DNA of 64,000 nucleotides from Candidatus Omnitrophota bacterium. Its GTDB lineage: Bacteria > Omnitrophota > Gorgyraeia > Gygaellales > JAQTUX01. Below the pieces are notes generated by a model. It was not told where the DNA came from, made no database searches, and worked only from the letters and a program-made list of their open reading frames with translations. Position numbers and translations under genes: made by a program. The DNA is taken from positions 144,355 to 208,354 of the forward strand of contig JAQTUX010000002.1 in the NCBI GenBank assembly GCA_028707125.1, written 5' to 3'. Positions 1-64,000 of this stretch are shown piece after piece (position 1 is the first letter of the stretch; each line of letters begins with the position of its first letter).

Positions 1-1131
1 ATGCAGCCCATTGTCGCCCATATATTCCGCGTTGGGAAAATCTCCGATCTTGTGCCCGAGATGATCAAAGCCGGCGCACTGCGTGGGCATGGAAAGAAAA
101 AGATTGCGGCTGTCGATCCCGTGCTCCTCCAGATAACAGACCAGTTTATCCCTTTTAAACCCGGCGCCCTGTCTCAATATGATCGCAAAGGCGTGAGGGC
201 CTATCTGTTCATCAGGGCCCTCTTTAATAGTATAAAGCTCGGGCTCAAACTCCTTGAACCGCTTCATCATATACAGAAGATTTCCGCGCCTTTTTTTCAA
301 GATATCCTGGTATATTTCCATATTGCCTAAACCGATCGCCGCCTCCAGCTCATTCATTTTTGCCGAAAATCCAACGCGCTCGAATATGAAACGTATATCC
401 CTGTTGCCGCCCTGCTGAAAACGTTTCCGGCAATGGCCGGAGGCGGTATTCAACAGACAGCTCTCGCATTTACAGGCGCGCCCATGAGAGCGCAAAGACC
501 TCAGGATCTCCGCGAAATCATCCCTGTCGGTGGTGACCATCCCTCCCTCGGCAGTGGTGATCATATGCGCCACATAAAGGCTGAATGCCGCCATATCGCC
601 GAGCCTTCCTACCGGCTTGCCCTTATACACCGCCCCATATGCCTCAGCCGCGTCCTCAATGACAAATAATTTATGTTTTTTTGCTATGGAATTTATCGTA
701 TCCATATCAGCCGGCTTTCCCATAAGGTGAACCGGCATTATAGCCCTTGTTTTTCCGGTTATCGCGGATTCGATCTTTTCCGGTTCGATATTCAACGTAT
801 TCCTGCCGATATCAACAAATACAGGGGTAAATCCGGCCTGCAGTACCGCGTTACCCGTGGCAACAAAAGACAGCGCGGGAACTATGATCTCATCGCTTCT
901 CTTTGCCCCGAAATCGTATAAAACTGCCAACGCCAGGGCGTCCGCGTCCGTGCCGCTGCTTACCGCTACCGCTTCTTTTGTACCTATGAGCCCGGCAAAC
1001 CTCTTTTCCAATTCCCTCACATATTTGCCGCTTGAAACGCGGTTTGAATCAAGGATATCCCTTATTAGATCTTTTGATCTCCGGGTAATAGATATTGTGC
1101 CGAAGGCAACCCTCATTCTTTCTTTGATCAT
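1..1131 (-). CDS. DegT/DnrJ/EryC1/StrS-family PLP-dependent sugar aminotransferase. The C-terminus runs off the window edge, so the 3' end is partial.
   Basis: Not in the ORF track because there is no stop inside the window. The minus-strand frame starts with ATG at 1131 (MIKERMRVAFGTISITRR...). It has AAT-I-fold motifs, including ...IVPALSFVATGNAV... and DAAEAYGAVYKGKPVGRLGDMAAFSLY. It lies directly downstream of the FAD oxidoreductase on the same strand. Confidence 0.8.
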   Translation of the reverse strand, partial: MIKERMRVAFGTISITRRSKDLIRDILDSNRVSSGKYVRELEKRFAGLIGTKEAVAVSSGTDADALALAVLYDFGAKRSDEIIVPALSFVATGNAVLQAGFTPVFVDIGRNTLNIEPEKIESAITGKTRAIMPVHLMGKPADMDTINSIAKKHKLFVIEDAAEAYGAVYKGKPVGRLGDMAAFSLYVAHMITTAEGGMVTTDRDDFAEILRSLRSHGRACKCESCLLNTASGHCRKRFQQGGNRDIRFIFERVGFSAKMNELEAAIGLGNMEIYQDILKKRRGNLLYMMKRFKEFEPELYTIKEGPDEQIGPHAFAIILRQGAGFKRDKLVCYLEEHGIDSRNLFLSMPTQCAGFDHLGHKIGDFPNAEYMGDNGLH

Positions 1132-1133
1132 TT

Positions 1134-2267
1134 CTAACCTATCCTTTCAACAATATCTTCAACGTATTCAGCTATGGCAGGGGCAGCTGTCAGGCCCGGG
1201 GACTCTATGCCGATAAGATTGATAAGGCCGGGAAACCCGATCCGGCTCTCCTCCTGGATTACAAAATCACGGAATCCTTCGCCTTTACCTTGAAGTTTTG
1301 GCCGGATGCCCGCGGTGTCAGGAACTAAATCCTGCTCTTCTAAAAAAGGAAGCAACCCTGCCGCGGAATTTAAGAATTTTCCCTTCTCCGCGACATCAAC
1401 ATTGTAGTCAAACCTGTCTCTTTCAACGTAGCGGCTGTCAGGCCCTAACCGCAGGCCTCCCGCTAAATCCAATGTAGCATGGACGCCCAGTCCGCCGTTA
1501 TTCTCCGGCACAGGGTATATCAAACGATTAATTAATCCGCATTTCTGCGGGGAATTCACCCTGAAATACTGTCCCTTGCAATATTTCAATCTATAATCCC
1601 GGTCTTCTATATTGATCCCCGCCATCTTCGCTATATTATCTGATTCAAGGCCGGCGCTGTTGATCACGATCTTGGCGTGAAATTTAAAAGTATCTCCTGA
1701 AGAACCCTCTATGGCAACCTCATAACCGTCGGTTGACCTGCGCAGGCCGGCCACATTGGAATCATAAGCGATATCCCCCCTGTTATCTTTCAGCCGCTGA
1801 ACAAAATACTTCATTAAACTGTGCGAATCAATTATTCCCGTCGCAGGAGAGAATAATGCCGCCTCGGCTTTAATATTCGGCTCCATCCTCGCGATTTCGG
1901 TCTTTGTCAAGATCTTAAGCTCTCTGGCGCCGCTGGCGCCGCCTTGTTTTAAAAGCTCTTCCAACGCGCTCGTCTCTTTATCATTTACTGCTACGATCAG
2001 TTTTCCCGTCTGCCTGTAAGGGATCTTATTTTTTGCGCAGATCTCATAAAGCATTCTATTCCCCTCAACGCACGCCTTTGCCTTTAAAGAGCCGGGATCA
2101 TAATATATACCTCCGTGAATAACCTCGCTATTGCGGCTGCTTGTCTCCTGACCGAAAGACTTATGCCGTTCTAAAACGTAGACCGACCGATTTTGTTCAG
2201 AAACCTTTGCGGCTATACCTAAACCTACAACGCCCGCTCCGATAATAACTATACCTGCACGCTCCAT
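1134..2267 (-). CDS. FAD-dependent oxidoreductase of the DAO/L-2-hydroxyglutarate-oxidase type.
   Basis: 377 aa. The N-terminus has a dinucleotide-binding motif, VIIGAGVVGLGIAAK...VLER. It is tightly coupled to the neighbouring genes. Confidence 0.65.
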   Translation of the reverse strand: MERAGIVIIGAGVVGLGIAAKVSEQNRSVYVLERHKSFGQETSSRNSEVIHGGIYYDPGSLKAKACVEGNRMLYEICAKNKIPYRQTGKLIVAVNDKETSALEELLKQGGASGARELKILTKTEIARMEPNIKAEAALFSPATGIIDSHSLMKYFVQRLKDNRGDIAYDSNVAGLRRSTDGYEVAIEGSSGDTFKFHAKIVINSAGLESDNIAKMAGINIEDRDYRLKYCKGQYFRVNSPQKCGLINRLIYPVPENNGGLGVHATLDLAGGLRLGPDSRYVERDRFDYNVDVAEKGKFLNSAAGLLPFLEEQDLVPDTAGIRPKLQGKGEGFRDFVIQEESRIGFPGLINLIGIESPGLTAAPAIAEYVEDIVERIG

Positions 2268-3332
2268 CTATTCTGCCAGCTCCACCGCCGCATTCACGAC
2301 TTCCCGGACGCCGGGATAGAACTTACGCTCCAGGACGTATCCCGACGGGGTAGGGATATCAGGCGCGGCGATCCTTTTAACCGGCTTCTTTAGAAAATTC
2401 AGCCCCTTTTCAGATACCATCGCCGCGATCTCAGCTGTAACCCCTGCCGTCTTCCATCCGGTATCAACTATAATAAGCCTTCCTGTCTTCTTCAGAGAGG
2501 TCAATATAATATCCTCATCCAGAGGGTTCAACGTTCTTAAATCTATGACCTCCGCTTCAATACCCCTGGTTCTTAGCTCCTCTGCCGCGCGCAATGCTTC
2601 TATGACCATATAAGAAGCGCCTACGATCGTAACGTCGCCGCCCTCTTTTCTTATAACTCCCTTGCCGAAAGGTATGGCATATAATTTATCCGGAACGTAA
2701 CCCGTATGCTTAAACGCCCATCGGTGTTCGATGAACACTACCGGATCGTCATCAAGTACGCTTGACACCAATAGGCCCTTCGCGTCATAGGGGGTGCTGG
2801 GCATAACAAGCTTAAGCCCCGGCACATGCATAAATAATCCCTGGAGCGCCTGGGAATGCTGCGCCCCCGAGCCCCAGCCGCGGCCGATGACCGCCCATAT
2901 TACGATCGGGACATTGCTCCTGCCTCCGAACATATAACGCCACTTTGAGGCATGATTAACGATCTGATCCATCGCCAACAGAAGAAAGTCGGGCCGGTTG
3001 TGCATATAAATCGGGCGCATGCCTACAAGCGCCGCCCCTACCGCGACCCCTGTCAACGCGTCCTCTGACAAAGGCGTATCAAATATTCTCTGTGAGCCGT
3101 ATTTTTTATGCAGATTCAATGTCGCGCCGAACATGCCCGATGGGTCGTCCACCCCCTGCCCCATTATAAAAACACGGCTGTCTATGGCAAGTATCTGTTC
3201 AAGCGTCTCATAAATGGCCTGTGTATAAGGTATGTTCCTGGCCTCTGATTTACCGCTATGATCAAAGCCGGGCTCCTCTTTTTCTATACTCTTCTTGTCC
3301 CAGTCAAAACTTATTTTTGATCTATTCGCCAT
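2268..3332 (-). CDS. E1 beta-like subunit of a TPP-dependent enzyme (2-oxoacid dehydrogenase E1 beta / transketolase C-terminal family).
   Basis: It has the pyrimidine-binding and C-terminal transketolase-like domains. The ORF track extends it to 3395. I prefer the ATG at 3332 (MANRSK...) because it nearly removes the 74-nt overlap with the upstream gene, but the start is uncertain. Confidence 0.75.
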   Translation of the reverse strand: MANRSKISFDWDKKSIEKEEPGFDHSGKSEARNIPYTQAIYETLEQILAIDSRVFIMGQGVDDPSGMFGATLNLHKKYGSQRIFDTPLSEDALTGVAVGAALVGMRPIYMHNRPDFLLLAMDQIVNHASKWRYMFGGRSNVPIVIWAVIGRGWGSGAQHSQALQGLFMHVPGLKLVMPSTPYDAKGLLVSSVLDDDPVVFIEHRWAFKHTGYVPDKLYAIPFGKGVIRKEGGDVTIVGASYMVIEALRAAEELRTRGIEAEVIDLRTLNPLDEDIILTSLKKTGRLIIVDTGWKTAGVTAEIAAMVSEKGLNFLKKPVKRIAAPDIPTPSGYVLERKFYPGVREVVNAAVELAE

Positions 3333-4338
3333 CGCTATAAAGATATTTTGATACTTCCGCCTCATCGGGAAACGGGCTATTCCGGGCAAACTCAAATGCC
3401 TCGTCTATCTCTTTATCAAAGGCCTGATTAAAACAAGTGATATCTGATCCGCTTATTACCTGTCTATCCAGCAAGAAGAGCTCAAAATTTTTAAGCGGGC
3501 ACCTTTCCATCCAGGCGTCCAATTCTTCCTGTGTCCTGTACCCCAACTCTATATCGGTGCCGCCCCCCGAATGCCCGCACCATCTGTAAGTGCAAAATTC
3601 TATAAAAGAAGGCCCTTTACCGCGGCGCGCGTCCTCAACCGCCCTTCTGCCTACGCAGTAAACATCGACCACATTGTTGCCGTCCGCCTTGTAACGCGAA
3701 ATACCGAAGCCGTCAAAACGCTCATATATATCTTTGGAAGGCTGACGATTACTCCTGTGAGAGCATACCGCATAAAGATTATTCTCACAGACGTATATCA
3801 CAGGCAGTCTTTTAAGCATCGCGAAATTAATACTTTCATATAATACGCCCTCGTCAACCGCCCCATCGCCGAATAATACCATCGTCACCCGCTTATTTCC
3901 CTGCAACAAAGAACCGAGGGCGGCCCCTGTGGCAATAGGTATACCGCCGGCTACGATCGAAGAAGAACCCAGTAATCCCACTGAGTTATCGATCAAATGC
4001 ATTGAGCCGCCCCTGCCGCGGGAACAACCGGTTTCCCTGCCGTATAATTCGGCAATAAGCGATTTTAAGTCCCCGCCCTTAGCAAGATAATGGCCGTGCC
4101 CTCTGTAATTACTAAGAAGGTAATCCTCCTTATCCAGATGGGCGCACATACCGGCAGGTATTGCCTCCTGCCCCTTGCAGAGATGAACCGGCGTCTTCAT
4201 TTCGTCTTTGGGATACTCCTCTTCTATCCTGACCTGCACCTTTCTTATCCTCAACATCTGTTTATAAAGCCGGACCAAATGCTCCCGGGGGATATCCCCG
4301 ATATTCTTATCGTAATTGATCATGGGGCCTTTTTCCAT
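3322..4338 (-). CDS. E1 alpha subunit of a TPP-dependent dehydrogenase (pyruvate or acetoin dehydrogenase E1 alpha family).
   Basis: YRGHGH...GRGGSMHL and CENNLYA motifs are typical of E1 alpha. Its start overlaps the stop of the upstream B12 radical SAM gene (TAATG at 4336-4340). No E2 or E3 gene lies nearby. Confidence 0.8.
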   Translation of the reverse strand: MEKGPMINYDKNIGDIPREHLVRLYKQMLRIRKVQVRIEEEYPKDEMKTPVHLCKGQEAIPAGMCAHLDKEDYLLSNYRGHGHYLAKGGDLKSLIAELYGRETGCSRGRGGSMHLIDNSVGLLGSSSIVAGGIPIATGAALGSLLQGNKRVTMVLFGDGAVDEGVLYESINFAMLKRLPVIYVCENNLYAVCSHRSNRQPSKDIYERFDGFGISRYKADGNNVVDVYCVGRRAVEDARRGKGPSFIEFCTYRWCGHSGGGTDIELGYRTQEELDAWMERCPLKNFELFLLDRQVISGSDITCFNQAFDKEIDEAFEFARNSPFPDEAEVSKYLYSDGE

Positions 4339-5810
4339 TACGCGTATTTCCTGCGTATTGTTGTCCTTAACATATCTTTGATATGATCCACAACCTTCGA
4401 TCCGAACCTTTTCCGGATCATTTCTATATATGCCGGATCGCTGAAATATTCACGGAAGGCGCTGTCCCTGAAGCGCAGAACCTCCGCGGATGAAAGGTGC
4501 TTGGTCGCCAGCGCCAAAGTATCTTCCGCATACTGGCCATACGCATGCCATTGCCCCGGAAGCTCTCTGCCGTCTCTTACGGCATCCCTGTACAGGTCTG
4601 ACCCGGGATAGGCCATGGCTACATAAAAATTCACGTATTCAAAATTAAGCTCCTTTGACATATCCAGGGTCTTCCGCATGGATTCCAGAGTATCATCAGG
4701 CAGCCCGAATATAAAATTGCCGAGCGTATGAATACCCGCGCGCTTTGTCATATCAACGGCCTCTGATATTTTATCCTGGGATATCCTTTTTGCGACACCT
4801 TCACGGACACCGCCGCTCGCGGACTCAACGCCAAAGCAAAGCCAGTTGATCCCCGCCCGTTTCATCGCCGGCAGTATATCGCCGCTAACCGTATCAACGC
4901 GCGCGTATGCCCAGATATTGAGCCTGTACCCCCTTTGGATAATAAGCTCGCATATACGCGTAAGGCGCTCTTTCTTGATCACAAACAACTCATCAAGGAT
5001 CTTGATATTGCGCACATTATAATTTTTAACTAAAATATCTATCTCCTCTATTACCTTCTCCGGGCTGCGAAAACGAATGCCGCATTTACCATAGAAGGCA
5101 TGTATGGGACAATAGCTGCAATTAAACGGGCATCCCAAACTGGTGAAGATCACCGCATAGGGGCTTCTTTTGTCTAAATCCTCGAAGCAGTGCCAGTTAT
5201 GGGCCTTATACTTATGCATAGGTAAAAGATCCCAGGCGGCAAAAGGAAGGCGGTCAAGATCCTCGATCAAAGATGCGGGCGCGGGCGCTCTTACGCCGGT
5301 ATCATCCATATACCAAAGCCCTTCTATTCCGCAATCTTCCGGCCTTTTCCCGGATCTTAATGCCTCCAGGGTTTTAAGAAAGGTATAAAATCCCTCGCCC
5401 TGGCATACAAAATCTACCTTCTCCTCCCTGATGGTTTGTTCAGGAAGCGCGGAAGGATGAAGCCCGGAAAGGATCGTTTTCACAGCGCTACCCTTGCTAT
5501 GCAGGACGTTCAGGAGTTCGCTCACCGCGGTCATTTTAGGCGTGGAAGAAGCGGATGGATTGGTCCCCAAAACAACGATACCGGCCAAAAGCGGATTTAA
5601 CTCGGCGATCTTCTCTGCCGTGTATTCCGGGCTCCAGTTCTCCGCATCCGCGTCAATGATCCCTACAGAATATCCCTGCTCGCGGATGAACCCGGCGATC
5701 AACCCGCACCACAGAGGAGGTTCGATGCCGGCCAGAGACTCGCCTAATCTGCCGTACATCTGAGCGCGATTACCGGGGTTTACCAGCAATAGGTCTAACC
5801 GCTTATCCAC
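4338..5810 (-). CDS. Cobalamin-binding (class B) radical SAM enzyme, paralogue 1 of 7.
   Basis: 490 aa. The N-terminus is a Rossmann-like B12-binding domain (LLLVNPG...GIIDAD...IVVLGT). The radical SAM cluster motif is SLGCPFNCSYCP. Confidence 0.85.
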   Translation of the reverse strand: MDKRLDLLLVNPGNRAQMYGRLGESLAGIEPPLWCGLIAGFIREQGYSVGIIDADAENWSPEYTAEKIAELNPLLAGIVVLGTNPSASSTPKMTAVSELLNVLHSKGSAVKTILSGLHPSALPEQTIREEKVDFVCQGEGFYTFLKTLEALRSGKRPEDCGIEGLWYMDDTGVRAPAPASLIEDLDRLPFAAWDLLPMHKYKAHNWHCFEDLDKRSPYAVIFTSLGCPFNCSYCPIHAFYGKCGIRFRSPEKVIEEIDILVKNYNVRNIKILDELFVIKKERLTRICELIIQRGYRLNIWAYARVDTVSGDILPAMKRAGINWLCFGVESASGGVREGVAKRISQDKISEAVDMTKRAGIHTLGNFIFGLPDDTLESMRKTLDMSKELNFEYVNFYVAMAYPGSDLYRDAVRDGRELPGQWHAYGQYAEDTLALATKHLSSAEVLRFRDSAFREYFSDPAYIEMIRKRFGSKVVDHIKDMLRTTIRRKYA

Positions 5811-6526
5811 AAAGTCCTCCTCAGGATCTTCTCAGCCTGCTTAAGCCTTTCCGGAGTTCCGATATCTATAAAACCGCCCTCGGCCAAATACCCGTAAAAC
5901 TCCCTCTTCACCATAACCGGGAAAAAATCATTCTCCAAAGAAAAGTTCTTATCTTCCGGCATTTCAGACAATATCTCCTTGCGGAACAAATAAATGCCGC
6001 CGTTGACAAAACCATCGCCCTTAACGGATTTCTCGCTGAACGCGTTGATACGCTGCGACTCACCCAAAATTATACTGCCATAATCGCTGCTGTCTGATTC
6101 AGGCGAAACGACTATGGAACAGTACGCCTTCTTCCGGGTATGGAACTCTAAAAACTTGCCCAGATCTACGTCGCAGAAAGAATCTCCGTTCATAACCAGG
6201 AATATATCGCTTCCAATCTTTGAGGAGGCATTTTTGATACACCCCCCGGTGCCCATTAACGCCTTCTCCTCAGAGAATACAATATCATAATTGCCCTTTC
6301 CGCCCTTATAATATCGTTTAATAAATTCAGCCCCGTACCCTATACAGAGAATAAAACGCCTGAATCCAAAACGCGCGGCATAATCGATAAGAATATCCAG
6401 AAAAGGACGGCCGCCGATCTCTATCATCGGTTTAGGCAAATCCCCTGCAACCGGCCTGATGCGCCTGCCTTCTCCCCCGCAAAGTATTACCGCGTCTATA
6501 TCCTCAAATGCCGGCCTTTTGCTCAT
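5795..6526 (-). CDS. Sugar-1-phosphate nucleotidyltransferase, resembling the D-glycero-alpha-D-manno-heptose-1-P guanylyltransferase HddC.
   Basis: NTP_transferase N-terminus: AVILCGGEGRRIRPVAGDLPKPMIEIGGRPFLD. It sits next to a GHMP kinase. Confidence 0.6.
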   Translation of the reverse strand: MSKRPAFEDIDAVILCGGEGRRIRPVAGDLPKPMIEIGGRPFLDILIDYAARFGFRRFILCIGYGAEFIKRYYKGGKGNYDIVFSEEKALMGTGGCIKNASSKIGSDIFLVMNGDSFCDVDLGKFLEFHTRKKAYCSIVVSPESDSSDYGSIILGESQRINAFSEKSVKGDGFVNGGIYLFRKEILSEMPEDKNFSLENDFFPVMVKREFYGYLAEGGFIDIGTPERLKQAEKILRRTLWISG

Positions 6527-7527
6527 TATGTTGTCAATGAATCCCCCGGGCTGTAAAATATAATCTGGCTGCCTAAATTCTCAAACCTGAAAGGCACATG
6601 TAAAAGATCCTTTAAGCTCTCGCGGATCTTTGGCTGGGCATCAGGCCGGGCAAAAAACAAGATAAATCCTCCGCCGCCTGCGCCTAATACCTTTCCTCCC
6701 CGCGCGCCTGCCCTGATCGCCGCAGAGTAGATATCATCTATTAAGGGCGTGGCTATCTTGCTTGACAGGCTGCGTTTCAGCATCCAGTTTTCATGTAAAA
6801 GTTTCCCGAAATCCGATAAATCGGAGTTGCTGTTTAATATGCTCAAGGCCTTATCTACCAAGCCATACATGGCGCGCAGTTCTTTCTGCTTATGCGGCGT
6901 CTTCTCTATCTGCTCCCGGGCGATCTCTGATGCCGTGCGGGAAAACCCGGTAAAGAAAAGCATCAAATGGGACTGGAATACCCTGAGGCGCTCGACGTCT
7001 ATAGTCACAGGCCTGACCTGAATATGATCCTTGCCTCCGAATTCTATAAGGCTAAACCCCCCAAAGGCGGCTAACGCCTGATCCTGCGAACCGACGTTTT
7101 CCTTCATAACCTCCTGCTCAAGATGAATGGCATCCAATACCAGCTGCCGCTTAGTCGGCATGACGCCCTTAAGCGCGTAAAGCGCGTGAAGCAGGCCAAC
7201 GGTAAAGGCGGAACTCGACCCCATACCCGTGCGCGCGGGCAGATCGCCGTCGTGATGAACCTCCACCCCTTTATCTATGCCTATAAACTTCAGGCAGGCC
7301 CTGACGGAGGGATGCTGGATCTCATCGATCTCCTTTACGAATTCCATCCTGGAATATATTATCCTTGACTTATGTTCAAAGAAAGGAGGCAGATGCCTGC
7401 AGCTAAGATAGCAGTACTTATTTATCGTCGTAGCCAATACGGCTCCGCCGTTATCTCTATACCATACGGGATAGTCCGTACCCCCGCCAAAAAAAGAAAT
7501 GCGAAAAGGCGTTCGGCTGATAACCAT
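6526..7527 (-). CDS. GHMP-family sugar kinase, resembling the heptose 7-phosphate kinase HddA.
   Basis: The N-terminus (TPFRISFFGGGTDYP) and the GHMP motif (PARTGMGSSSAF), then GAGGGGF near the C-terminus. It shares one nucleotide with the downstream nucleotidyltransferase ORF. Confidence 0.6.
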   Translation of the reverse strand: MVISRTPFRISFFGGGTDYPVWYRDNGGAVLATTINKYCYLSCRHLPPFFEHKSRIIYSRMEFVKEIDEIQHPSVRACLKFIGIDKGVEVHHDGDLPARTGMGSSSAFTVGLLHALYALKGVMPTKRQLVLDAIHLEQEVMKENVGSQDQALAAFGGFSLIEFGGKDHIQVRPVTIDVERLRVFQSHLMLFFTGFSRTASEIAREQIEKTPHKQKELRAMYGLVDKALSILNSNSDLSDFGKLLHENWMLKRSLSSKIATPLIDDIYSAAIRAGARGGKVLGAGGGGFILFFARPDAQPKIRESLKDLLHVPFRFENLGSQIIFYSPGDSLTT

Positions 7528-7535
7528 ATCTCTCC

Positions 7536-19682: not shown

Positions 19683-19683
19683 T

Positions 19684-44581: not shown

Positions 44582-44583
44582 AT

Positions 44584-47622: not shown

Positions 47623-47626
47623 ATCC

Positions 47627-53704: not shown

Positions 53705-53900
53705 GTAATTTTGGCCTGTTGCCCTGAAAAACCCGAGTTTTCCGGGGGGTGGCGTTCTAAAAATGAACGATTACCATTTTACGGCTTTTGCCCTGCTTTG
53801 TCAAGTGACTTCTGCGTTCAAATCAGCCGGAAAAAGCCGCTATCTTAAGCTCGTATCTTCTTCAAATGCAATTGGTTTTGCTCCTGTAGAAAAGGCGGGA
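53705..53900 (-). promoter_or_regulatory. Largest intergenic region in the window; candidate promoter/operator or attenuator for the regulator gene and the downstream nonulosonic-acid genes.
   Basis: It is a 196 bp non-coding gap in an otherwise gap-free locus. It contains a weak stem followed by a T-run (CCCGGAAAACTCGGGTTTTT on the transcribed strand) about 30 nt upstream of the regulator start. Confidence 0.3.
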
Positions 53901-56393: not shown

Positions 56394-56395
56394 TC

Positions 56396-58105: not shown

Positions 58106-58116
58106 ATCCGGAGGCC

Positions 58117-59406
58117 TTAGATTCTGGATAACTTCTTATCGGTAAGATTATTGTAGATATTCCTGCAGTCGAATATCCTCTTCGCATGTCGCAGGACATA
58201 ACCGTAATCTATCCGCGAATGATCAGTCGCTATAACTACCATATCCTGCGATCTTAATAATCCGGCGGTCAATCTTTTTGCCTTTAAATTGATGCCGTTT
58301 ATTTTCAGGAAAGGGATGAGGGGATCGTAATAGGCAACCTTTGCGCCTGCCTTCTGGAAATATTCGATCGCGTCAAGCGAAGGGGACTTACGCAAATCCC
58401 TGACATCTTTTTTATACGTCACACCGATAATCAAAATATTTTTATCTTTTAAATCTCCGACGGCCTCCCGAGTCCTTTCAACCACGTACCTGGGCATATA
58501 TGTTATTATGTCTGACGCCAATTTTATGAATTTTGACTTGAATCCGTATTTCTTCGCCTTCCAATAAAGATACAGGGGGTCTTTTGGGATACAGTGGCCG
58601 CCTACGCCGGGGCCGGGATAAAACGGCATAAAACCGAACGGCTTGGTCCTGGCGGCATCAATGACCTCCCAGATATTAATGGACATCTTGTGCGCCATCA
58701 TCGCAAGCTCATCTATAAGCCCGATATTCACCAACCGGAAGGTATTTTCCAGCAGCTTCACCATCTCGGCAACCCGCGCCGAGGATACCGGCACTGTCCT
58801 GGCAAGGGCGCTGCCGTAAAATAACCGGGTCATGCGGGTGGCCTCAATAGTAGTGCCGCCGATAACCTTTGGTATCTTATTTACGTGGAATTTTTTATTG
58901 CCCGGGTCGATACGCTCGGGAGAAAATGCCAGCAGAAAATCCTTGCCGCAAACAAGCCCCTTGCTTTCAAGTATGGGCTGTATCACCTCTTCGGTGGTCC
59001 CGGGATACGTGGTGCTCTCCAGGATCACCAGGCTCCCGCTCTTCTGGTATCCGGCTATCTGCCGCACCGCCTTCAAAATATAAGATATATCCGGGTGGTA
59101 TTTTCTTTTAAGGGGGGTAGGAACGCATATGAGCATCACGTCAAGCTTCCCTATCTGCCTGAAATCCTGCGTAGCGTGAAACATGCCTGCCTTTACCACG
59201 GCCTTGAGGTCGGCGTCTTTTACGTCGGAGATATAGTTTACCCGCGCGTTGATGTTATCAACTCTGCCCCTGTCGGTATCTATACCGAGCACCTTAAAGC
59301 CCTTTTTCGCGAACGTCACGGCAAGGGGCAGGCCCACATATCCCAACCCCACCACCCCCACAAGCGCGCTCTTATTCCCTATCTTCTTCTCTAATTCACG
59401 TAGCAT
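58117..59406 (-). CDS. Nucleotide-sugar 6-dehydrogenase (UDP-ManNAc/UDP-GlcNAc dehydrogenase WecC/WbpA/Cap5O-like).
   Basis: VGVVGLGYVGLPLA N-terminus and the catalytic motif GPGVGGHCIPKD. Confidence 0.75.
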   Translation of the reverse strand: MLRELEKKIGNKSALVGVVGLGYVGLPLAVTFAKKGFKVLGIDTDRGRVDNINARVNYISDVKDADLKAVVKAGMFHATQDFRQIGKLDVMLICVPTPLKRKYHPDISYILKAVRQIAGYQKSGSLVILESTTYPGTTEEVIQPILESKGLVCGKDFLLAFSPERIDPGNKKFHVNKIPKVIGGTTIEATRMTRLFYGSALARTVPVSSARVAEMVKLLENTFRLVNIGLIDELAMMAHKMSINIWEVIDAARTKPFGFMPFYPGPGVGGHCIPKDPLYLYWKAKKYGFKSKFIKLASDIITYMPRYVVERTREAVGDLKDKNILIIGVTYKKDVRDLRKSPSLDAIEYFQKAGAKVAYYDPLIPFLKINGINLKAKRLTAGLLRSQDMVVIATDHSRIDYGYVLRHAKRIFDCRNIYNNLTDKKLSRI

Positions 59407-60281
59407 TTCTCAATATACTCCTTTAGCGCTTCCTGCCACGGCCTCAGCCTGTAACCCGCCGCCCGCGCGAATCTCTTATTTTCCAACACCGTGCATCTGG
59501 GCCTCTTCGCGGCAAAGCCGTATTCATCCAGCCTGGTTGAAGAAATATTCACGCCGTTATGCCCGTAGAATTCCTTTATCTTCAAGGCGAATTCATACCA
59601 GGAGCACTTGCCTGAATTCGTGATATGATAAATCCCCCGCGGATCACCGCCGCGCCCTCCGCGAAGCATCCCTATGAGGCCGGCGATAGCGCCGCTCAAA
59701 TCAACGCTATACGTCGGAATGCTGTATTTATCGCCTATTATATTAAAATCCGCGCCCTGCCTTATCTTCTTTATCACGGTATCTACAAAGTCCTTGTGCC
59801 GCGCGCCGAAAAGCCAGCTTGTCCTGATGATCAAATACTCCTTGAGCGTCATCGCGCATATTTTTTCCGCTTCAAATTTTGACTGCGCGTATACATTTAT
59901 GGGCTTCGGCTCATCATCCTCTGTATAGGCAGACAGCTTGGTACCGTCAAAAACATAATCCGTGCTTATGAATATAAGTACGGTCCCTGATCCCGCGCAG
60001 GCCTGAGCTATGTTACGCGTCCCCTCCGCGTTGATATTGAACGCTGATCGCGGGTCTTTTTCGCAAGCATCAACGTCTGTCAGCGCTGCCGCGTGGATCA
60101 CGACCCGCGGGGACTCGCGGATAAATACCTCTTGTACCTTTTTGGCATCCGTGATATCGCAGTCAGAGCGCCCGATACCCTTTACTATATATTTATCTGA
60201 AAGCGCGCTGGTAAGGCAGCTGCCCAGAAGGCCGCCGGCCCCGGTAACCAGTATCTTTATATTATTCTTTTTTTCCACCAA
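59391..60281 (-). CDS. rfbD: dTDP-4-dehydrorhamnose reductase (RmlD family) or a related 4-ketoreductase.
   Basis: ILVTGAGGLLGS...YAQSKFEAE (YxxxK). It sits in the RmlABD gene block. Confidence 0.75.
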   Translation of the reverse strand: MVEKKNNIKILVTGAGGLLGSCLTSALSDKYIVKGIGRSDCDITDAKKVQEVFIRESPRVVIHAAALTDVDACEKDPRSAFNINAEGTRNIAQACAGSGTVLIFISTDYVFDGTKLSAYTEDDEPKPINVYAQSKFEAEKICAMTLKEYLIIRTSWLFGARHKDFVDTVIKKIRQGADFNIIGDKYSIPTYSVDLSGAIAGLIGMLRGGRGGDPRGIYHITNSGKCSWYEFALKIKEFYGHNGVNISSTRLDEYGFAAKRPRCTVLENKRFARAAGYRLRPWQEALKEYIEKCYVN

Positions 60282-61213
60282 TCAAAATTTCCGGAATACC
60301 AGCCTATAGTCAGATTTAACGCGTCATTAAAATTATATTCTGGCCGCCAGCCCAAGGTCCGGATTTTATGCGTGTCAAGGCTGTATCTAAAATCGTGGCC
60401 GAGGCGATCTTTCACGCGCCTTATCATATTATGGCCCTTATTCATTTTCTTCAATATGAGTTTTGTGAGATTCAAATTGGTAATCTCGGAATTGCTGGCA
60501 ATATTGTAAACCCCTTCTTTCCTGCCCTTACGGATAACCGTATCTATTGCGGCGCAGTTATCGTACACATAAATCCAGTCCCTGATATTCTCCCCCCGGC
60601 TGTAAAGCGGGACCTTCTTGTTCCTAAGTAAATTGGTGATAAAAAGCGGGATTACCTTCTCAGGATATTGATACGGCCCGAAATTATTGCCGCTCCTGGT
60701 GATTATAACGGGAAGTCCGTAGGTGTTGGCGTAAGACATGCAGAGCAGGTCCGCTCCTGCCTTGCTTGCTGAATAGGGATTGCCCGGAGCAAGAGGAGAA
60801 TCTTCACGGAACCTGCCCCTTTTTATGCTCCCGTAGACTTCGTCGGTAGATATCTGAACGAATAGCCCGGCGCCGCTTCCCTTGCATGCCTCAAGCAGAT
60901 TGCGCACACCCGCTATGTTGGTGTCAATAAAACAGCTTGAATCATTAATGGAACGGTCAACGTGCGTCTCGGCCGCGAAATTAACTATAACATCCGCCTT
61001 CCCGGCCAATCCCGTAACCAGGCGCCTGTCGCGTATATCCCCTTTTACAAACCTGTGCCTCTTATCGGCCTTAAGCGAGGCAATATTATCTATGTTGCCG
61101 GCATATGTAAGCTTATCCAGATTGATTACCTCTGCCGCCTTGTATTTATTCAATATGAATTTAACAAAATTGGAGCCGATGAATCCGGCTCCGCCCGTGA
61201 TCAGATATCTCAT
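60257..61213 (-). CDS. rfbB: dTDP-glucose 4,6-dehydratase (RmlB).
   Basis: MRYLITGGAGFIGSNFV...STDEVYG...YSASKAGADLL. 318 aa. Confidence 0.85.
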   Translation of the reverse strand: MRYLITGGAGFIGSNFVKFILNKYKAAEVINLDKLTYAGNIDNIASLKADKRHRFVKGDIRDRRLVTGLAGKADVIVNFAAETHVDRSINDSSCFIDTNIAGVRNLLEACKGSGAGLFVQISTDEVYGSIKRGRFREDSPLAPGNPYSASKAGADLLCMSYANTYGLPVIITRSGNNFGPYQYPEKVIPLFITNLLRNKKVPLYSRGENIRDWIYVYDNCAAIDTVIRKGRKEGVYNIASNSEITNLNLTKLILKKMNKGHNMIRRVKDRLGHDFRYSLDTHKIRTLGWRPEYNFNDALNLTIGWYSGNFDWWKKRII

Positions 61214-61932
61214 TTCCGCTCTTTTCTCGCGATAAGATTATTGGCCCTGAGAAGCGATTCGTGCGTCCCGCAGTCAGTCCACCATCCGCTTAATATATCA
61301 AAAAACATCTCCTGTCTCTCTATATAGGCATTATTTACATCCGTTATCTCCAGCTCGCCCCGCTTAGACGGCTTGAGAGTGCGTATAATATCAAAGACCC
61401 GTGGATCATACATATATATGCCGGTGACTATATAATCGGACTTGGGATTCCTGGGCTTCTCCTGGATTGAAACTATCCGCCTGCCCCTTAATTCCACCAC
61501 TCCGAAACGTTCAGGGTCCGGCGCCTTCTTTATCAATATCCTCGCCCCTCTTCTCTGCCGCCTGAATTTTTCAACATAACGCTTTATGGATTTCTCCACG
61601 ACATTATCTCCCAGGATAACCGCTATTTTGTCTCCGTCGGCAAAATGCTCCGTAAGGGCCAGCGCCGCGGCGATCCCGCCCTCGCCTTGCTGATAAGTAT
61701 AGTTAATATGTTTTAAGCCGAAATCCGAACCGTTTCCCAGAAGCCGCAGGAAATCTCCGGCGTTATTGCCGCCCGTAACGATCATGATATCCGTAATGCC
61801 TGCCTCAACAAGGGCCATGATAGGGTAATACACCATCGGCCGGCAATAGACAGGTAGAAGGTGCTTGTTTGTGATGCGGGTCAACGGCTCTAAACGCTTA
61901 CCCAACCCGCCTGCCAAAATTACGCCTTTCAT
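61210..61932 (-). CDS. rfbA: Glucose-1-phosphate thymidylyltransferase-like nucleotidyltransferase (short-form RmlA).
   Basis: MKGVILAGGLGKRLEPLT...KHLLPV. 240 aa. It is adjacent to rmlB and rmlD. Confidence 0.6.
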   Translation of the reverse strand: MKGVILAGGLGKRLEPLTRITNKHLLPVYCRPMVYYPIMALVEAGITDIMIVTGGNNAGDFLRLLGNGSDFGLKHINYTYQQGEGGIAAALALTEHFADGDKIAVILGDNVVEKSIKRYVEKFRRQRRGARILIKKAPDPERFGVVELRGRRIVSIQEKPRNPKSDYIVTGIYMYDPRVFDIIRTLKPSKRGELEITDVNNAYIERQEMFFDILSGWWTDCGTHESLLRANNLIARKERK

Positions 61933-61945
61933 ATTATCACGCGTC

Positions 61946-62006
61946 CATTTTCCTCTACAGGCTTACGCCTGTAGAATCCTCATTCCCCACACGTAAGTGT
62001 GGGGTC
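61946..62006 (-). repeat. Copy A of a ~60 bp double-hairpin intergenic element, between the rmlC-like and rmlA genes.
   Basis: On the transcribed strand it reads GACCCCACACTTACGTGTGGGG-n10-CTACAGGCGTAAGCCTGTAG-AGGAAAATG. That is two perfect 8 bp stems with 4 nt loops. It is about 90% identical to copy B at 62465-62524. Confidence 0.8.
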
Positions 62007-62459
62007 CGGATGTAACGGCCTCAAATTATCCCAGTCGTAATATTCATTCTTTATGCGGAATTCATCCGGTTTGTTTCTATCGTACTCGGGATCAATGCAG
62101 TTTATTATAAATGCCTCTCCCGCTAAACTCTTAAATGCGTGGAGCACGCCTTTGGGGATACCTACAAGGCAAAAGTTTCCCTCGCCGATCTCGAATTCGT
62201 TGAGCTCGTTCTTTGTCCTGCTGTTATCGCGTATATCGACTAAAACGAGCTTTATCTTTCCTTTGATGCAGCAGAAGAAATCGGCCTGATCTTTATGCAG
62301 ATGGAACTTGTCCTTGTCCTTCGTGACCCCTTCAAATGCCGTTGTCAGATATACCTGCCGCGGCTGGATACCTGTTTCCGATACCCGGAATATCTCCATA
62401 AGCCGCCCGCGCTCGTCGGAGATCACCTTAAGCTTCTTAATCCTGACGCCTTCTATCAT
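61980..62459 (-). CDS. RmlC-like cupin: a dTDP-4-keto-6-deoxyhexose 3,5-epimerase, or more likely an FdtA/QdtA-type 3,4-ketoisomerase.
   Basis: 159 aa. It has DERGRLMEI, FHLHKDQADFFCCIKGKIKLVLVD (the HxH(K) pattern of FdtA-type isomerases, against RGLHFQ in RmlC) and GIPKGVLHAF. The last ~10 codons overlap repeat copy A. Confidence 0.55.
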   Translation of the reverse strand: MIEGVRIKKLKVISDERGRLMEIFRVSETGIQPRQVYLTTAFEGVTKDKDKFHLHKDQADFFCCIKGKIKLVLVDIRDNSRTKNELNEFEIGEGNFCLVGIPKGVLHAFKSLAGEAFIINCIDPEYDRNKPDEFRIKNEYYDWDNLRPLHPDPTLTCGE

Positions 62460-62464
62460 ACGCT

Positions 62465-62524
62465 CATTTCCTCTACAGGCTTACGCCTGTAGTATCATCA
62501 TGCCCCACACGTAAGTGTGGGGTC
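62465..62524 (-). repeat. Copy B of the double-hairpin element, between ugd and the rmlC-like gene.
   Basis: It has the same two stems and the same AGGAAATG tail. It begins immediately after the ugd TAG stop and ends at the mini-ORF and the rmlC-like start. Confidence 0.8.
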
Positions 62525-63816
62525 TATCTCCTGCCGATCCCGCAATAATGGAACCCCATCTTCTTCATTTTATCGGGTTCGTAAATATTCCTCCCGTCTA
62601 CAATTATGGGGTGCCTCATAAGTTTCTTTATCCTGGCGAGATCCAGCTCTTTAAACTGCGGCCATTCCGTAATAAATACCGCGCAATCGCAGGAACGGAA
62701 ACAACCGTAGAGGTCGCGGGAAAATTCCACGCCCGCGATCATATCCTTTGCCTTGCGCATGGCATGCGGGTCGTACGCCTTGATCTTTGCCCCTTCGCTC
62801 TGAAGGCGCCTTATTATGTCAATGGAAGGCGCGTTGCGCAGGTCATCGGTGTCCGGCTTAAAGGCCAGGCCCAATACCGCGATGGTCTTCCCCCTTACGA
62901 TCCAGAGCATACTTTCGATCTTTTTCATGATATTTATCTTCTGTTCCTCGTTCACCCGTTCCACCGCCTTTAATAATTCAAAGTCATACCCTATTTTCTG
63001 CGCGATATTGATAAATGCCTGAACGTCTTTGGGAAAACAACTGCCTCCGTATCCTGCTCCGGCGTCAAGAAAGGAGCGCCCTATCCTCCTGTCCAGCCCC
63101 ATTCCCTCCGCGACCTTGACCACGTCCGCCCCTACCCTGTCGCAAACCTGCGATACGGCATTTATAAAAGATATCTTCGCGGCCAGGAAAGAATTACTGG
63201 CATGCTTTATTATCTCGGCGGACTTGATATCGGTTACTATGATCGGGCAATCAAGCGGCTCATAAAGATCCCTTAATATCCTCTCCGCGCGTTTTGATTC
63301 TACGCCGATAACGACCCTGTCCGGATGCATAAAGTCGGATATCGCCTGGCCTTCCCGCAGGAATTCCGGATTGGATGCGATGTCAAACTTGACCTTTCTT
63401 TTATTATTCAGCCCCACTGTATGCTCTACCCATTTGCCTGTCTCAACCGGGACCGTGGACTTCTCCACTATGAGCCGATAGGAACGCATATATTTGGCGA
63501 TATTACGCGCGACCTTTTCCACGCCGCTTAAATCCGCCTCTCCACTTTCCCGCGAGGGAGTACCTACCGTTATAAATATTACCTGCGAGCTATCTACCGC
63601 CTCCTTGATGCTGGAAGAAAAAAACAGGCGCCTGCCGCGCGCGTTATCCCTGACCATCTCTTCTAAGCCGGGTTCATATATGGGGATATCCATCCTTTTC
63701 AGGCGCTTGATCTTCTTTTCATCGTTGTCCACGCATATGACACGGTTACCCAATTGAGCAAAGCAGGCGCCCGTAACCAGGCCCACATAACCCGTCCCGA
63801 CGATCGCGATATCCAT
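62524..63816 (-). CDS. ugd: UDP-glucose 6-dehydrogenase.
   Basis: MDIAIVGTGYVGLVTGACFA and the catalytic motif GAGYGGSCFPKD. An AAGGAGAG RBS lies 5 nt upstream. 430 aa. Confidence 0.85.
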   Translation of the reverse strand: MDIAIVGTGYVGLVTGACFAQLGNRVICVDNDEKKIKRLKRMDIPIYEPGLEEMVRDNARGRRLFFSSSIKEAVDSSQVIFITVGTPSRESGEADLSGVEKVARNIAKYMRSYRLIVEKSTVPVETGKWVEHTVGLNNKRKVKFDIASNPEFLREGQAISDFMHPDRVVIGVESKRAERILRDLYEPLDCPIIVTDIKSAEIIKHASNSFLAAKISFINAVSQVCDRVGADVVKVAEGMGLDRRIGRSFLDAGAGYGGSCFPKDVQAFINIAQKIGYDFELLKAVERVNEEQKINIMKKIESMLWIVRGKTIAVLGLAFKPDTDDLRNAPSIDIIRRLQSEGAKIKAYDPHAMRKAKDMIAGVEFSRDLYGCFRSCDCAVFITEWPQFKELDLARIKKLMRHPIIVDGRNIYEPDKMKKMGFHYCGIGRR

Positions 63817-63833
63817 GACTCTCCTTATTAAAA

Positions 63834-64000
63834 CTAACTCCCCGGCTTCGGCTGATGGTACTCTTTATTGTATTCAAATTCCATTTCCGGGAACGCCTTT
63901 AACCTGTAAATGAACCACAATGCCTCTCCCTTATTCCTGGTCACATTATAGGTAATGTCCAATTCCCCGCAGTGCAGATCGCGCGTGAGCACATATTCCT
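63834..64000 (-). CDS. 3' end of an upstream gene of unknown function; the 5' part lies outside the window.
   Basis: The open minus-strand frame ends ...EYVLTRDLHCGELDITYNVTRNKGEALWFIYRLKAFPEMEFEYNKEYHQPKPGS, with a stop at 63834-63836. I recognise no family. Confidence 0.4.
   Translation of the reverse strand, partial: EYVLTRDLHCGELDITYNVTRNKGEALWFIYRLKAFPEMEFEYNKEYHQPKPGS

Follow-up and report, generated by a model that had tools for sequence, protein, structure and literature searches.

Are the roughly 60 genes that crowd one strand of a 64-kb stretch of Omnitrophota DNA transcribed as one operon? The stretch (the window: 64,000 nucleotides of contig JAQTUX010000002.1, Candidatus Omnitrophota bacterium) carries a surface-glycan locus whose genes all lie on the minus strand and are read towards position 1. 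The original prediction saw in it a single super-operon, and this was not borne out: internal promoter cassettes lie at 53.8 kb (P2) and about 15 kb past the left edge of the window (P3), and another promoter (P1) lies upstream of a ROK kinase gene in the upstream flank. Judged from these sequence features, the locus, which is anchored at the lipopolysaccharide (LPS) assembly gene lptD, is probably not one operon but three or more transcription units that follow one another in the same direction.

The evidence that carries this reading lies in the only large gap of the window, 196 nt at 53705-53900, which separates a B12-binding radical S-adenosylmethionine (SAM) gene from a regulator gene. 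Promoters were scanned for with the sigma-70 consensus, scored over 12 positions. Within 44-64 kb there was a single match of 11/12, and it fell in this gap: TTGACA (53799-53804), a 17-nt spacer and TAAAAT (53776-53781). It is followed by an inverted repeat, ATCGTTCA-N4-TAGAAC (53754-53771), which contains CGTTC-N7-GAACG, and by a small hairpin with a T-run (53732-53746). We aligned 13 distinct sequences, namely, the window and 12 other loci whose regulators are 50 to 70% identical to that of the window. TTGACA, the 17-nt spacing and the -10 box (TAAAAT or GATAAT) were retained throughout, the repeat was invariant and stood 3 to 5 bases after the -10 box, and the rest of the gap was conserved neither in sequence nor in length. 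Promoter and repeat are thus conserved while the surrounding spacer is not, a phylogenetic footprint that argues strongly for a real internal promoter under regulation at 53.8 kb.

The gene that follows the gap, the first of the predicted unit 2, encodes a two-domain winged-helix regulator of 207 amino acids (aa) (53081-53704; PF13412, E 9.5e-10). It matched TIGR04176 over model positions 6 to 97 of 105 (E 1.9e-20) with 72.8 bits, below the curated cut-off of 88, and it sits in a polysaccharide locus, both in the window and in the related loci with context. We call it MarR_EPS-like, as the homology is clear but the protein has an additional C-terminal domain of about 100 aa. A metagenome scan recovered 44 relatives at 36 to 87% identity, 43 of which match at least 128 residues of the query and 33 at least 190 of the 207. 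In the loci with context the gene has a median of 173 nt upstream and 11 nt downstream, and it is placed after a conserved head (UDP-glucose 6-dehydrogenase [UGDH], rmlCABD and a second dehydrogenase) and before variable genes (DegT, NeuB/NeuC, cytidylyltransferase and HisF/HisH/WbuX). The putative operator occurs once in the window. Another 18 metagenomic loci likewise have a single copy each, in every case shortly before the regulator gene, and the remaining fetched loci have none except two public-assembly copies of the window region itself. The inverted repeat is thus most likely the operator of a predicted MarR_EPS-like repressor. The C-terminal half of the protein (53081-53400, residues about 100 to 207) gave weak Pfam hints to Rossmann-like domains that bind nucleotide sugars (Methyltransf_14 C-terminal, E 2e-4; PglD_N, E 0.12) and may sense a pathway intermediate; a single-sequence structure model of the regulator was unusable, with a predicted local distance difference test score (pLDDT) of 38. 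Rfam returned nothing at gathering thresholds across the window and nothing at E <= 1 in the leader at 53.6-54.0 kb, hence no riboswitch, cobalamin riboswitches included.

P3 (TTGACA-17-TATATT, 11/12, with an extended -10) lies in a 68-nt spacer about 15 kb beyond the left edge. Promoter, palindrome (TTAGAAC-A-TTCTAA) and the gene of a 196-aa MJ223-like winged-helix regulator (PDB 1ku9, E 3e-17), which we take to be of the GbsR type, form a cassette (6227-6868 of the fetched locus L074, about 15.0 to 15.7 kb left of position 1). The same arrangement was found in L075 (16317-16948), from a second Omnitrophota-type genome of 37% GC; there the preceding gene faces the opposite strand, so that a promoter must exist at this position. 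The P3 palindrome, with half-sites TAGAAC/GTTCTA, and the operator at 53.76 kb are alike in their half-sites, and the two cassettes may share regulation. P1, the best promoter match of the upstream flank, falls in the spacer between GGDEF and ROK genes, and TTGCAA, TTGACA or TTGAAA-N17-TAxxAT recurs at this position in at least 11 relatives. Overall, there were 27 coding-strand matches of 10/12 or better, and three of them lie in spacers of at least 40 nt, which make up 0.6% of the sequence (expected, 0.17; Poisson p of about 7e-4).

In the arrangement that we propose, unit 1, of about 13 kb and 11 genes, would start at P1 with ROK, take in lptD, UGDH, rmlCABD and the second dehydrogenase, and close with the radical SAM gene that ends at 53901. 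Unit 2 would start at P2 (53804-53776) with the regulator as its first gene and the inverted repeat over the expected transcription start, and would comprise about 69 kb and 64 genes; inside the window it has no spacer longer than 49 nt, and it probably runs on for about 15 kb past it, a part that includes one spacer of 145 nt. Unit 3 would extend from the MJ223-like regulator cassette onward, about 15 kb left of position 1. Ribosomes would probably be passed from gene to gene at ATGA and TAATG junctions, and an mRNA covered in this way would be less subject to Rho-dependent polarity.

Gene packing in the window was determined from independent gene calls (public assembly), which define 60 junctions; longest open reading frame (ORF) starts were counted separately. 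The ORF listing and Pfam confirmed an unbroken minus-strand chain of 59 complete genes (1134-63816), a cut DegT gene (1-1131) and the last 55 codons of lptD (63834-64000), as had been predicted, edge truncations included. Of the 59 complete genes, 51 were supported by Pfam or NCBIfam matches at E <= 1e-5, as were the two edge fragments; two further genes had weak matches only, and six had none. On the plus strand, the six longest ORFs had no Pfam match, and every ORF is nested in domain-supported minus-strand genes; two plus-strand "genes" of a crude caller (3571-3843 and 4090-4386) were rejected as shadows of the E1-alpha gene, which the caller had dropped over a 74-nt overlap. Overlapping junctions comprise 13 by 4 nt (ATGA type), 3 by 1 nt and 15 by 8 to 44 nt, and spaced ones 15 at 0 to 10 nt, 9 at 11 to 30 nt, 4 at 30 to 64 nt and the one at 196 nt. 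Non-coding DNA totals 593 nt, or 0.9% of the window. Four junctions quoted in the original prediction proved exact on the minus strand (TAATG at 4336-4340, ATGA at 35056-35059 and single shared nucleotides at 6526 and 42234), while its statement that most junctions overlap is borderline, at 52% with the independent calls and 60% with longest ORFs, and "gap-free" holds with the one real exception of 53705-53900.

All 61 genes thus share one strand and operon-like spacing, with an internal promoter cassette among them. Co-direction and packing, with spacers of at most 64 nt at 59 of the 60 junctions and overlaps at 31, are what a single super-operon would predict, in which a lone promoter upstream of the window would give rise to one messenger for some 60 genes and those beyond, and the 53.8-kb element, not being a promoter, might be just a pause, processing or factor-loading site. 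We found no convincing intrinsic terminator between the stop at 53901 and the -35 box, nor between units, and since none separates them, some read-through from unit to unit, including from unit 1 to unit 2, is likely; terminator-like matches exceeded shuffles in some segments (32 versus 21.8; 30 versus 17.5) and were weak 5-bp stems in genes, on both strands. The conserved inverted repeat, moreover, lies in the transcribed leader, as do the loading sites of NusG paralogues (ops and the LoaP leader hairpin). Against the super-operon stand the perfect -35 box, the 17-nt spacing and the TAAAAT box kept in an otherwise unconserved gap, the opposite-strand gene before the P3 equivalent of L075, where a promoter is needed, and the presence of a regulator gene of its own after each cassette. 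We therefore regard one transcript for the whole locus as very unlikely and retain a train of several units.

Same-strand orientation alone says little in this lineage. In 43 Omnitrophota loci, sampled as stretches of about 20 kb around one region (UGDH), 503 of 520 neighbour pairs (96.7%) lay on the same strand, against 77.5% in other phyla, and the 10 kb of conserved, unrelated genes of housekeeping type upstream of the locus (DUF1015, AccD-like, MalK-type ATPase, two GGDEF, ROK, transaldolase and LptD) changed strand in 3 of 112 pairs. The chance of 92 genes in a row on one strand is about 0.05 at the 96.7% baseline, about 0.4 at 0.99 and 8e-11 at the baseline of the other phyla. Shared orientation is for the most part a feature of the lineage or the region, and because the unrelated upstream genes share it and the baseline is 96.7%, it is not evidence of an operon here. 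We found no paper on gene-strand bias in Omnitrophota. One study (PMC11237797) gives gene-strand bias of up to about 85% in some phyla and high strand-bias regions, such as a conserved region of Gemmatimonadota, that likewise hold long one-strand stretches irrespective of function; in comparison, our samples are of about 20 kb around one Omnitrophota region only.

These figures give weight to a different explanation, namely, that uniform orientation and packing mainly reflect genome architecture (a streamlined genome with extreme strand bias, the genes lying probably on the leading strand) and that the locus consists of many short units started from promoters inside genes, as in many O-antigen and capsule clusters. 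The spacers between the unrelated upstream genes are also short (-8, 43, 16 and 17 nt), and promoter-like matches occur inside genes at the density of shuffled sequence. However, the genes of the window are packed significantly more closely than those of the lineage at large: with the same crude gene caller applied to the window and to the 43 Omnitrophota loci, overlaps amounted to 61% versus 36% (binomial p = 1.4e-4) and gaps of more than 100 nt to 2% versus 17% (p = 2.6e-4). The strongest promoter matches cluster in the rare spacers and not in genes, the dedicated NusG paralogue of relatives (see below) implies long units, and as all baseline loci surround one region, a genome-wide bias is not shown by them. 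Genome architecture as the main cause thus appears unlikely to us compared with a few long units.

Specialised NusG paralogues encoded beside long polysaccharide or antibiotic operons secure read-through (PMC7819879). In 11 related loci (L080 and L083 to L092), all among the 18 that share the operator, a 169-aa gene of the NusG/RfaH family lies directly 3' of the regulator (for example, L085 10621-11130), and its product matched NusG (E 5.6e-15) and RfaH (E 2.7e-8) in the PDB over its full length. Because this gene heads the equivalent block in 11 relatives, long units are plausible for this locus family. The long polycistronic transcription and translational coupling of the original prediction are plausible to that extent, though not across the whole locus. 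The window locus and its three closest relatives (L077 to L079) lack the paralogue.

Several points weigh against our reading of the locus. The promoter scan relied on a consensus that may not be Omnitrophota's own. On the coding strand, some 24 other matches of 10/12 or better are found within genes, at shuffle-expected density, so that extra internal promoters may or may not exist and unit 2 may fall short of the proposed length; the 145-nt spacer in the downstream flank, which has no promoter match, might be another boundary. The inverted repeat could act as a hairpin of the transcript or of the non-template strand instead of as a protein operator. A tblastn search of the window and of about 35 kb of flanks with the 169-aa query found no NusG paralogue, and the RfaH ops motif GGCGGTAG occurred at chance level in the window, with neither match in the 53.8-kb leader and no ops-like enrichment. 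Shine-Dalgarno motifs preceded 9 of 31 overlapped starts and 15 of 29 spaced starts, a trend at most (p = 0.11). As for the glycan, the nucleotide-sugar pathways, glycosyltransferases and Wzx (at a modest score) of a Wzx/Wzy cluster are present, while no initiating phosphoglycosyltransferase (WbaP/WecA; Bac_transf, Glycos_transf_4) was seen in the window or in the flanks covered, which stop short of the locus end, and about 100 kb yielded no recognisable Wzy, Wzz or WaaL domain, two polytopic proteins (56396-58105 and 12052-13806) having no assigned family.

Dense translational coupling is the obvious candidate for sustaining long transcription in this locus. It is doubtful, in our estimate, that unit 2 is one MarR-gated messenger of about 69 kb and about 64 genes which, having no locus-encoded NusG paralogue, would owe its processivity to near-continuous translational coupling. 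If true, few known bacterial operons would rival unit 2 in number of genes, and its glycan would be tailored by at least eight cobalamin-dependent radical SAM enzymes.

The original prediction had placed the window inside a larger locus, which holds for the downstream side. A walk of three protein-search steps past position 1 added 28 same-strand glycan genes over 29.5 kb and met no locus end, so that all size figures are lower bounds: at least 87 glycan genes span 93 kb or more, the window being the first ~64 kb, about two thirds, of this cluster, and the co-directional run has at least 92 genes over no less than 99 kb. The 28 genes include three AsnB-type amidotransferases, two more PMT_2 GT-C enzymes, a module of FkbH, acyl carrier protein (ACP), MaoC and short-chain dehydrogenase (SDR), and the third cytidylyltransferase, second NeuB-like and eighth B12-radical SAM genes of the locus. 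The upstream glycan boundary, in contrast, lies inside the window, where UGDH, the first glycan gene, begins at 63816 directly after lptD. Upstream, an ABC ATPase fragment, two GGDEF genes, a ROK kinase gene and lptD follow one another on the same strand, the lptD stop lying 17 nt before UGDH; lptD seems to share a transcript with the first glycan genes. Related loci were fetched with a UGDH probe (an lptD probe gave no confirmed relative in the genome scan), and the closest UGDH relatives, 60 to 68% identical, are almost all from Omnitrophota. About 30 genomes show the order GGDEF-GGDEF-ROK-(transaldolase)-LptD-UGDH, and 34 loci keep LptD next to UGDH, with spacers mostly below 90 nt. Across the phylum (L001, L004 to L061), the one-strand order extends to DUF1015 - AccD-like - MalK-type ATPase - GGDEF - GGDEF - ROK - (transaldolase) - LptD - UGDH.

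The window is 100% identical to contigs of run SRR22315508, and a near-identical strain (0.07 to 0.5% different) is present in run SRR22315506. A raised density of single-nucleotide polymorphisms in the glycan genes was considered and rejected, the density between the two samples being no higher than in the lptD flank. Public short-read contigs of both samples end alike at 42896-42924 (HisF-like gene), 52347 (DegT), 53546 (regulator) and 61979-62467 (58-nt repeats, see below), which suggests assembly-graph branches from paralogous k-mers or strain variants at module joints.

The original prediction also held the locus to be native. Of the evidence offered for this, the absence of tRNAs, transposases and integrases was borne out: the window has no tRNA, and neither the window nor about 35 kb of flanks has a transposase or integrase domain, nor do the flanks show mobile-element borders. 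Composition was likewise uniform in a windowed GC and codon-usage check, the GC content at third codon positions (GC3) being 0.568 +/- 0.042 and equal to that of conserved flank genes. Dips in GC coincide with membrane-protein genes, mostly of near-normal GC3 (lower, at 0.49, in the gene at 12052-13806); GC skew is strong and comes mostly from codon positions 1 and 2, GC3 skew being only about +0.07. The sole outlier is the gene at 23787-24581 (GC 0.38 and GC3 0.39, against 0.57 for the locus), which may be a recent single-gene acquisition.

This outlier, the marked difference in gene content between species after the conserved head, and a 58-nt direct repeat that brackets the RmlC-like gene would fit a recently acquired genomic island or mobile-element cargo beside lptD, as would reports of hypervariable polysaccharide cassettes and glycosyltransferase cargo in Omnitrophota (preprints 10.64898/2026.05.20.726742 and 10.64898/2026.06.07.730766). 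Opposed to it are the lack of integrase, transposase and tRNA genes and of att-like borders over about 100 kb, which stop short of the downstream end, the match of GC3 and codon usage to conserved flank genes, and the sharing of the head (UGDH and second dehydrogenase), of an E1/GHMP module and of a GT4-GT1-AsnB-transglutaminase-like core with other Omnitrophota at 35 to 70% identity; the paralogues within the locus are old, at most 39% identical. Because its position is conserved across the phylum, its composition is uniform and mobile-element genes are lacking, a recent island seems to us extremely improbable. "Native" therefore stands for position, codon usage and lack of mobile-element genes, while the content is hypervariable between species, with shuffled modules.

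Recent tandem duplication as the source of the locus size was rejected, as all paralogues are at most 39% identical. The two copies of the 58-nt repeat, at 62467-62524 and 61949-62006 (minus strand; the second overlaps the 3' end of the RmlC-like gene), are 95% identical. Each has two perfect 8-bp hairpins, CCCCACAC-TTAC-GTGTGGGG and then CTACAGGC-GTAA-GCCTGTAG, followed by AGGAAA and no T-tract. Short public contigs stop there, and no further copy was found in about 100 kb or in related loci. The repeat could be a cassette-insertion scar or an intercistronic element that stabilises or processes the mRNA. The module of E1-alpha/beta, epimerase, B12-radical SAM, GHMP kinase, nucleotidyltransferase and DegT (1-8468) lies 50 kb from the head here and directly after the head in L035 and L056, in a different gene order and at 38 to 70% identity. 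A core block of GT4, GT1, AsnB-type amidotransferase and transglutaminase-like genes stands between variable glycan genes in three genomes (L071, L074, L075 and L076), and its GT1 has more than 100 relatives among cluster representatives at 60 to 73% identity.

What the locus makes is likely an LPS-linked or other envelope heteropolysaccharide, the link to LPS being suggested by lptD, which adjoins and is probably co-transcribed. In the order of transcription, the 3' end of lptD (63834-64000; PF04453 in the full gene, L001), the last non-glycan gene, is followed by UGDH (62524-63816; three UDPG_MGDP_dh domains, E 6.5e-68) and by four genes for a dTDP-6-deoxyhexose: an RmlC-like cupin of the dTDP-4-dehydrorhamnose 3,5-epimerase family, whose presence varies among relatives (61980-62459; PF00908, E 2.7e-15), an RmlA-type nucleotidyltransferase (61210-61932; PF00483, E 3.6e-56), an RmlB-type 4,6-dehydratase (60257-61213; PF16363, E 8.9e-71) and an RmlD-type reductase (59391-60278, start from the independent gene call; PF04321, E 2.6e-83). 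A second NDP-sugar dehydrogenase, of the UDP-ManNAc/GlcNAc dehydrogenase type (58117-59406; UDPG_MGDP_dh domains), is kept beside UGDH in relatives, and the two dehydrogenases correspond to two uronic acids. Predicted unit 1 then holds a 569-aa membrane protein with about six hydrophobic segments and no match in Pfam, NCBIfam or the PDB, a candidate polymerase, ligase or GT-C enzyme (56396-58105), a GT2 glycosyltransferase (55464-56393; PF00535, E 2.6e-38) and, as its last gene, B12-binding radical SAM enzyme 1 (53901-55439; PF02310 and PF04055, below NCBIfam equivalog cut-offs).

Behind the regulator gene, a DegT-family aminotransferase gene (51916-53031; PF01041, E 1.3e-128) and the gene of a 566-aa membrane protein (50219-51919) lead into a nonulosonate block of legionaminic type (43847-50222). 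In this block, the NeuB-type nonulosonate synthase (49206-50222; TIGR03569, 468 bits against a cut-off of 400) and the NeuC-type hydrolysing UDP-sugar 2-epimerase (48064-49209; TIGR03568, 419 against 236) pass the curated cut-offs, and the other four enzymes are below them. These are a hexapeptide acetyltransferase (47627-48052; PF00132, NeuD/PglB family 61 bits), a PseC/LegC-like aminotransferase (46492-47622; PF01041, E 3e-114; TIGR03588 297 bits, TIGR04181 254 bits), a PseB/LegB-like UDP-GlcNAc 4,6-dehydratase (45500-46495; PF02719, E 2e-105; TIGR03589 319 bits against 408) and cytidylyltransferase 1, which is CMP-nonulosonate synthetase-like (43847-44581; PF02348, PseF model 120 bits). The counterparts of LegB, LegC, LegH and LegF are thus all sub-cut-off and nearer to Pse than to Leg models. 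A GFO/IDH/MocA-like oxidoreductase gene with a weak match (44584-45507; PF01408, E 1e-4) stands within the block.

The 566-aa protein, encoded between the DegT gene and NeuB, has no Pfam match and belongs to a rare family of 131 representatives among 1.84e9 proteins, 44 members of which also gave no match in a Pfam scan. Aligned with hhalign to the PMT_2 proteins of the locus, it scored 93% probability (E 3e-7). Its AlphaFold2 model (pLDDT 91.4) had GT-C folds as all of its top 10 PDB matches (probability 1.00, template modeling score 0.30 to 0.40), among them PglB, ArnT, STT3, EmbB and DPY19. A WDD motif is conserved in the family, D34 and D35 being nearly invariant. On the strength of the alignment and the modelled fold, we are confident in predicting a divergent GT-C-fold glycosyltransferase of a rare new family, with an acidic motif in the first periplasmic loop.

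Downstream of the block lie a short-chain dehydrogenase gene (43120-43860; PF13561, E 1.7e-46) and an acetamidino-sugar trio comprising a HisF-like cyclase subunit (42234-43118; PF00977, E 1.7e-63), a HisH-like glutamine amidotransferase subunit (41590-42234; PF00117) and a WbuX-type N-acetyl-sugar amidotransferase (40348-41559; TIGR03573, 346 bits against a cut-off of 203). They are followed by a radical SAM enzyme that has no B12 domain and only generic NCBIfam matches (39416-40315; PF04055), a GT2 enzyme (38566-39438; PF00535) and the Wzx-type flippase, with about nine hydrophobic segments (37016-38557; PF01943, E 9.3e-10). Next come an HpcH/HpaI-family aldolase (36234-36998; PF03328, E 2e-36; HpaI-like, 192 bits), a 393-aa protein with no match in Pfam, NCBIfam or the PDB, whose homologues adjoin a methyltransferase in L091 and L092 (35056-36237), a SAM methyltransferase (33986-35059, the start at 35059 giving the ATGA overlap; PF13489), cytidylyltransferase 2 (33301-34002; PF02348), B12-binding radical SAM enzyme 2 (31782-33308, a domain match below NCBIfam equivalogs) and a further SAM methyltransferase (30831-31775, by domain match). 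A 578-aa protein (29107-30843) weakly resembles LIC13510 of Leptospira, a surface-carbohydrate protein (TIGR04326, E 1.2e-8, far below cut-off; no PDB match).

The next stretch encodes a D-2-hydroxyacid dehydrogenase (28186-29094; PF02826), a NAD-dependent epimerase/dehydratase (27300-28184; PF01370), a HAD phosphatase (26659-27303; PF13419), a cyclase-family protein (25995-26675; PF04199), B12-binding radical SAM enzyme 3 (24578-26011), nearest in NCBIfam to the Sden_1168 P-methyltransferase family (318 of 575 bits), and, in the outlier gene, a 264-aa weakly methyltransferase-like protein (23787-24581; PF13649, E 5e-4). Assigned by domain match are a DegT aminotransferase (22648-23772), a GT2 (21728-22642), a GT4 (20619-21731) and a SAM methyltransferase (19684-20622). 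A small GT2 (18981-19682; PF00535, E 4e-40) would be of the polyprenyl-phosphate-sugar synthase type, to judge from its size and its GT-C neighbours. It is followed by B12-binding radical SAM enzyme 4 (17445-18980), with homologues 36 to 40% identical in the L075 locus of the second genome, and enzyme 5 (16085-17473, by domain match), a GDSL-family esterase/acyltransferase (15108-16088; PF13472) and two PMT_2 GT-C glycosyltransferases (13816-15111, PF13231, E 1.7e-17; and 10737-12095, PF13231, E 4e-10), between which lies a 584-aa polytopic membrane protein with about eight hydrophobic segments and no match in Pfam, NCBIfam or the PDB (12052-13806). PDB sequence searches with the five proteins lacking a recognised family gave no match.

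The last part of the window holds, by domain match, B12-binding radical SAM enzyme 6 (9152-10729) and another small GT2 (8482-9186), followed by a NAD-dependent epimerase/dehydratase (7536-8468) that is 70% identical to genes in L035 and L056, a GHMP sugar kinase (6526-7527; PF00288 and PF08544), a sugar-1-phosphate nucleotidyltransferase (5795-6526; PF00483), B12-binding radical SAM enzyme 7 (4338-5810, by domain match), a thiamine-diphosphate E1 alpha-like subunit (3322-4338; PF00676, E 1.5e-64), an E1 beta-like subunit (2268-3365; PF02779 and PF02780), a FAD-dependent oxidoreductase of the DAO family (1134-2267; PF01266, E 5.8e-63) and the DegT aminotransferase cut by the window edge (1-1131, by domain match; 404 aa in full, the full gene lying in the flank). 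This module of kinase, nucleotidyltransferase, epimerase, E1-alpha/beta, DAO and DegT genes is common to L035 and L056; a sugar activated by its kinase and nucleotidyltransferase would be tailored by E1 alpha/beta, the aminotransferase and radical SAM enzymes. Of the pathways listed in the original prediction, the dTDP-sugar, uronic-acid, legionaminic-type nonulosonate, GT-C and radical SAM modules are present, and heptose is weak: a GDP-heptose pathway (HddA/HddC with GmhA and GmhB) was rejected, as the kinase and nucleotidyltransferase score 130 of 600 bits with the HddA model and 149 of 300 with HddC, far below cut-off, and there is no SIS-domain isomerase.

Overall, the window encodes eight GT2/GT4 enzymes, five or six methyltransferases, at least three GT-C periplasmic transferases (the two PMT_2 enzymes and the 566-aa protein) and seven B12-radical SAM proteins, mutually 23 to 32% identical and thus old paralogues, none of which reaches a functional NCBIfam equivalog. 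The eighth lies downstream (L074 20501-20717). One of these proteins has the diol-dehydratase AprD4 among its closest solved structures, and the L075 locus has three more such genes, so that the enrichment recurs in the lineage. The FkbH-like loader, acyl carrier protein, MaoC dehydratase and SDR genes (L074 7585-10717) lie within the glycan locus and suggest an ACP-bound hydroxyacyl or glyceryl decoration.

The locus is a very large, long co-directional surface-glycan locus of a known kind, closest in scale to the rfb locus of Leptospira. The rfb genes are co-directional there too, a point on which we found no paper. The rfb locus spans about 4 kb to more than 100 kb (PMC13111663) and is conventionally delimited from a MarR regulatory gene (PMC12457778). 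Both loci are very large and hypervariable between lineages, with Wzx, many glycosyltransferases, DegT and rml genes and, here, the one weak LIC13510 match. The present locus differs in belonging to another phylum, with no close sequence relationship, in having eight B12-radical SAM and several GT-C genes, and in the internal place of its MarR-type gene, 10 kb after the first glycan gene, with a second, C-terminal domain. The UpxY capsule operons of Bacteroides fragilis and the RfaH, LoaP and TaA operons are likewise long and co-directional and have a specialised NusG gene adjacent, as do the 11 relatives with promoter, regulator and NusG paralogue at the head (PMC7819879). The window locus, in contrast, has no such paralogue, and the first gene of its predicted unit 2 is of the MarR type with a palindromic site. 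Polysaccharide operons controlled by UpxY or RfaH are several times smaller than the predicted unit of about 69 kb and 64 genes.

Enterobacterial O-antigen (rfb) clusters, of about 10 to 20 kb and 10 to 20 genes, share the conserved anchor with variable cargo, the one-strand nucleotide-sugar, glycosyltransferase and Wzx genes and rmlABCD at the head; here, the anchor is lptD, and Wzy, Wzz and WaaL went unrecognised. The legionaminic and pseudaminic pathways of Campylobacter and Legionella have the NeuB, NeuC, PseB/LegB-like, PseC/LegC-like, acetyltransferase and CMP-transferase functions found at 43847-50222, whereas four of these six enzymes fall below equivalog cut-offs here, the rare GT-C-fold protein is embedded among the genes, and there is no Maf-type transferase.

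Omnitrophota are widespread, uncultured, often very small cells that are considered dependent on hosts or prey, so that their surface probably plays a central part in how they live, and here about 100 kb is devoted to a single, highly decorated glycan, probably several percent of the genome if this is about 2 Mb, like the 2.1-Mb chromosome of one preprint (10.64898/2026.06.07.730766). Same-strand gene runs in Omnitrophota, our data warn, cannot be read as operons. The eight class-B radical SAM proteins and the rare new GT-C family are unexplored enzymes of a sugar chemistry that has hardly been explored. Relatives with a NusG paralogue, set against this lineage without one, offer a natural comparison on how very long operons escape premature termination, and the conserved cassette of promoter, operator and MarR-type regulator, which would gate the variable part of these loci, provides a testable handle.

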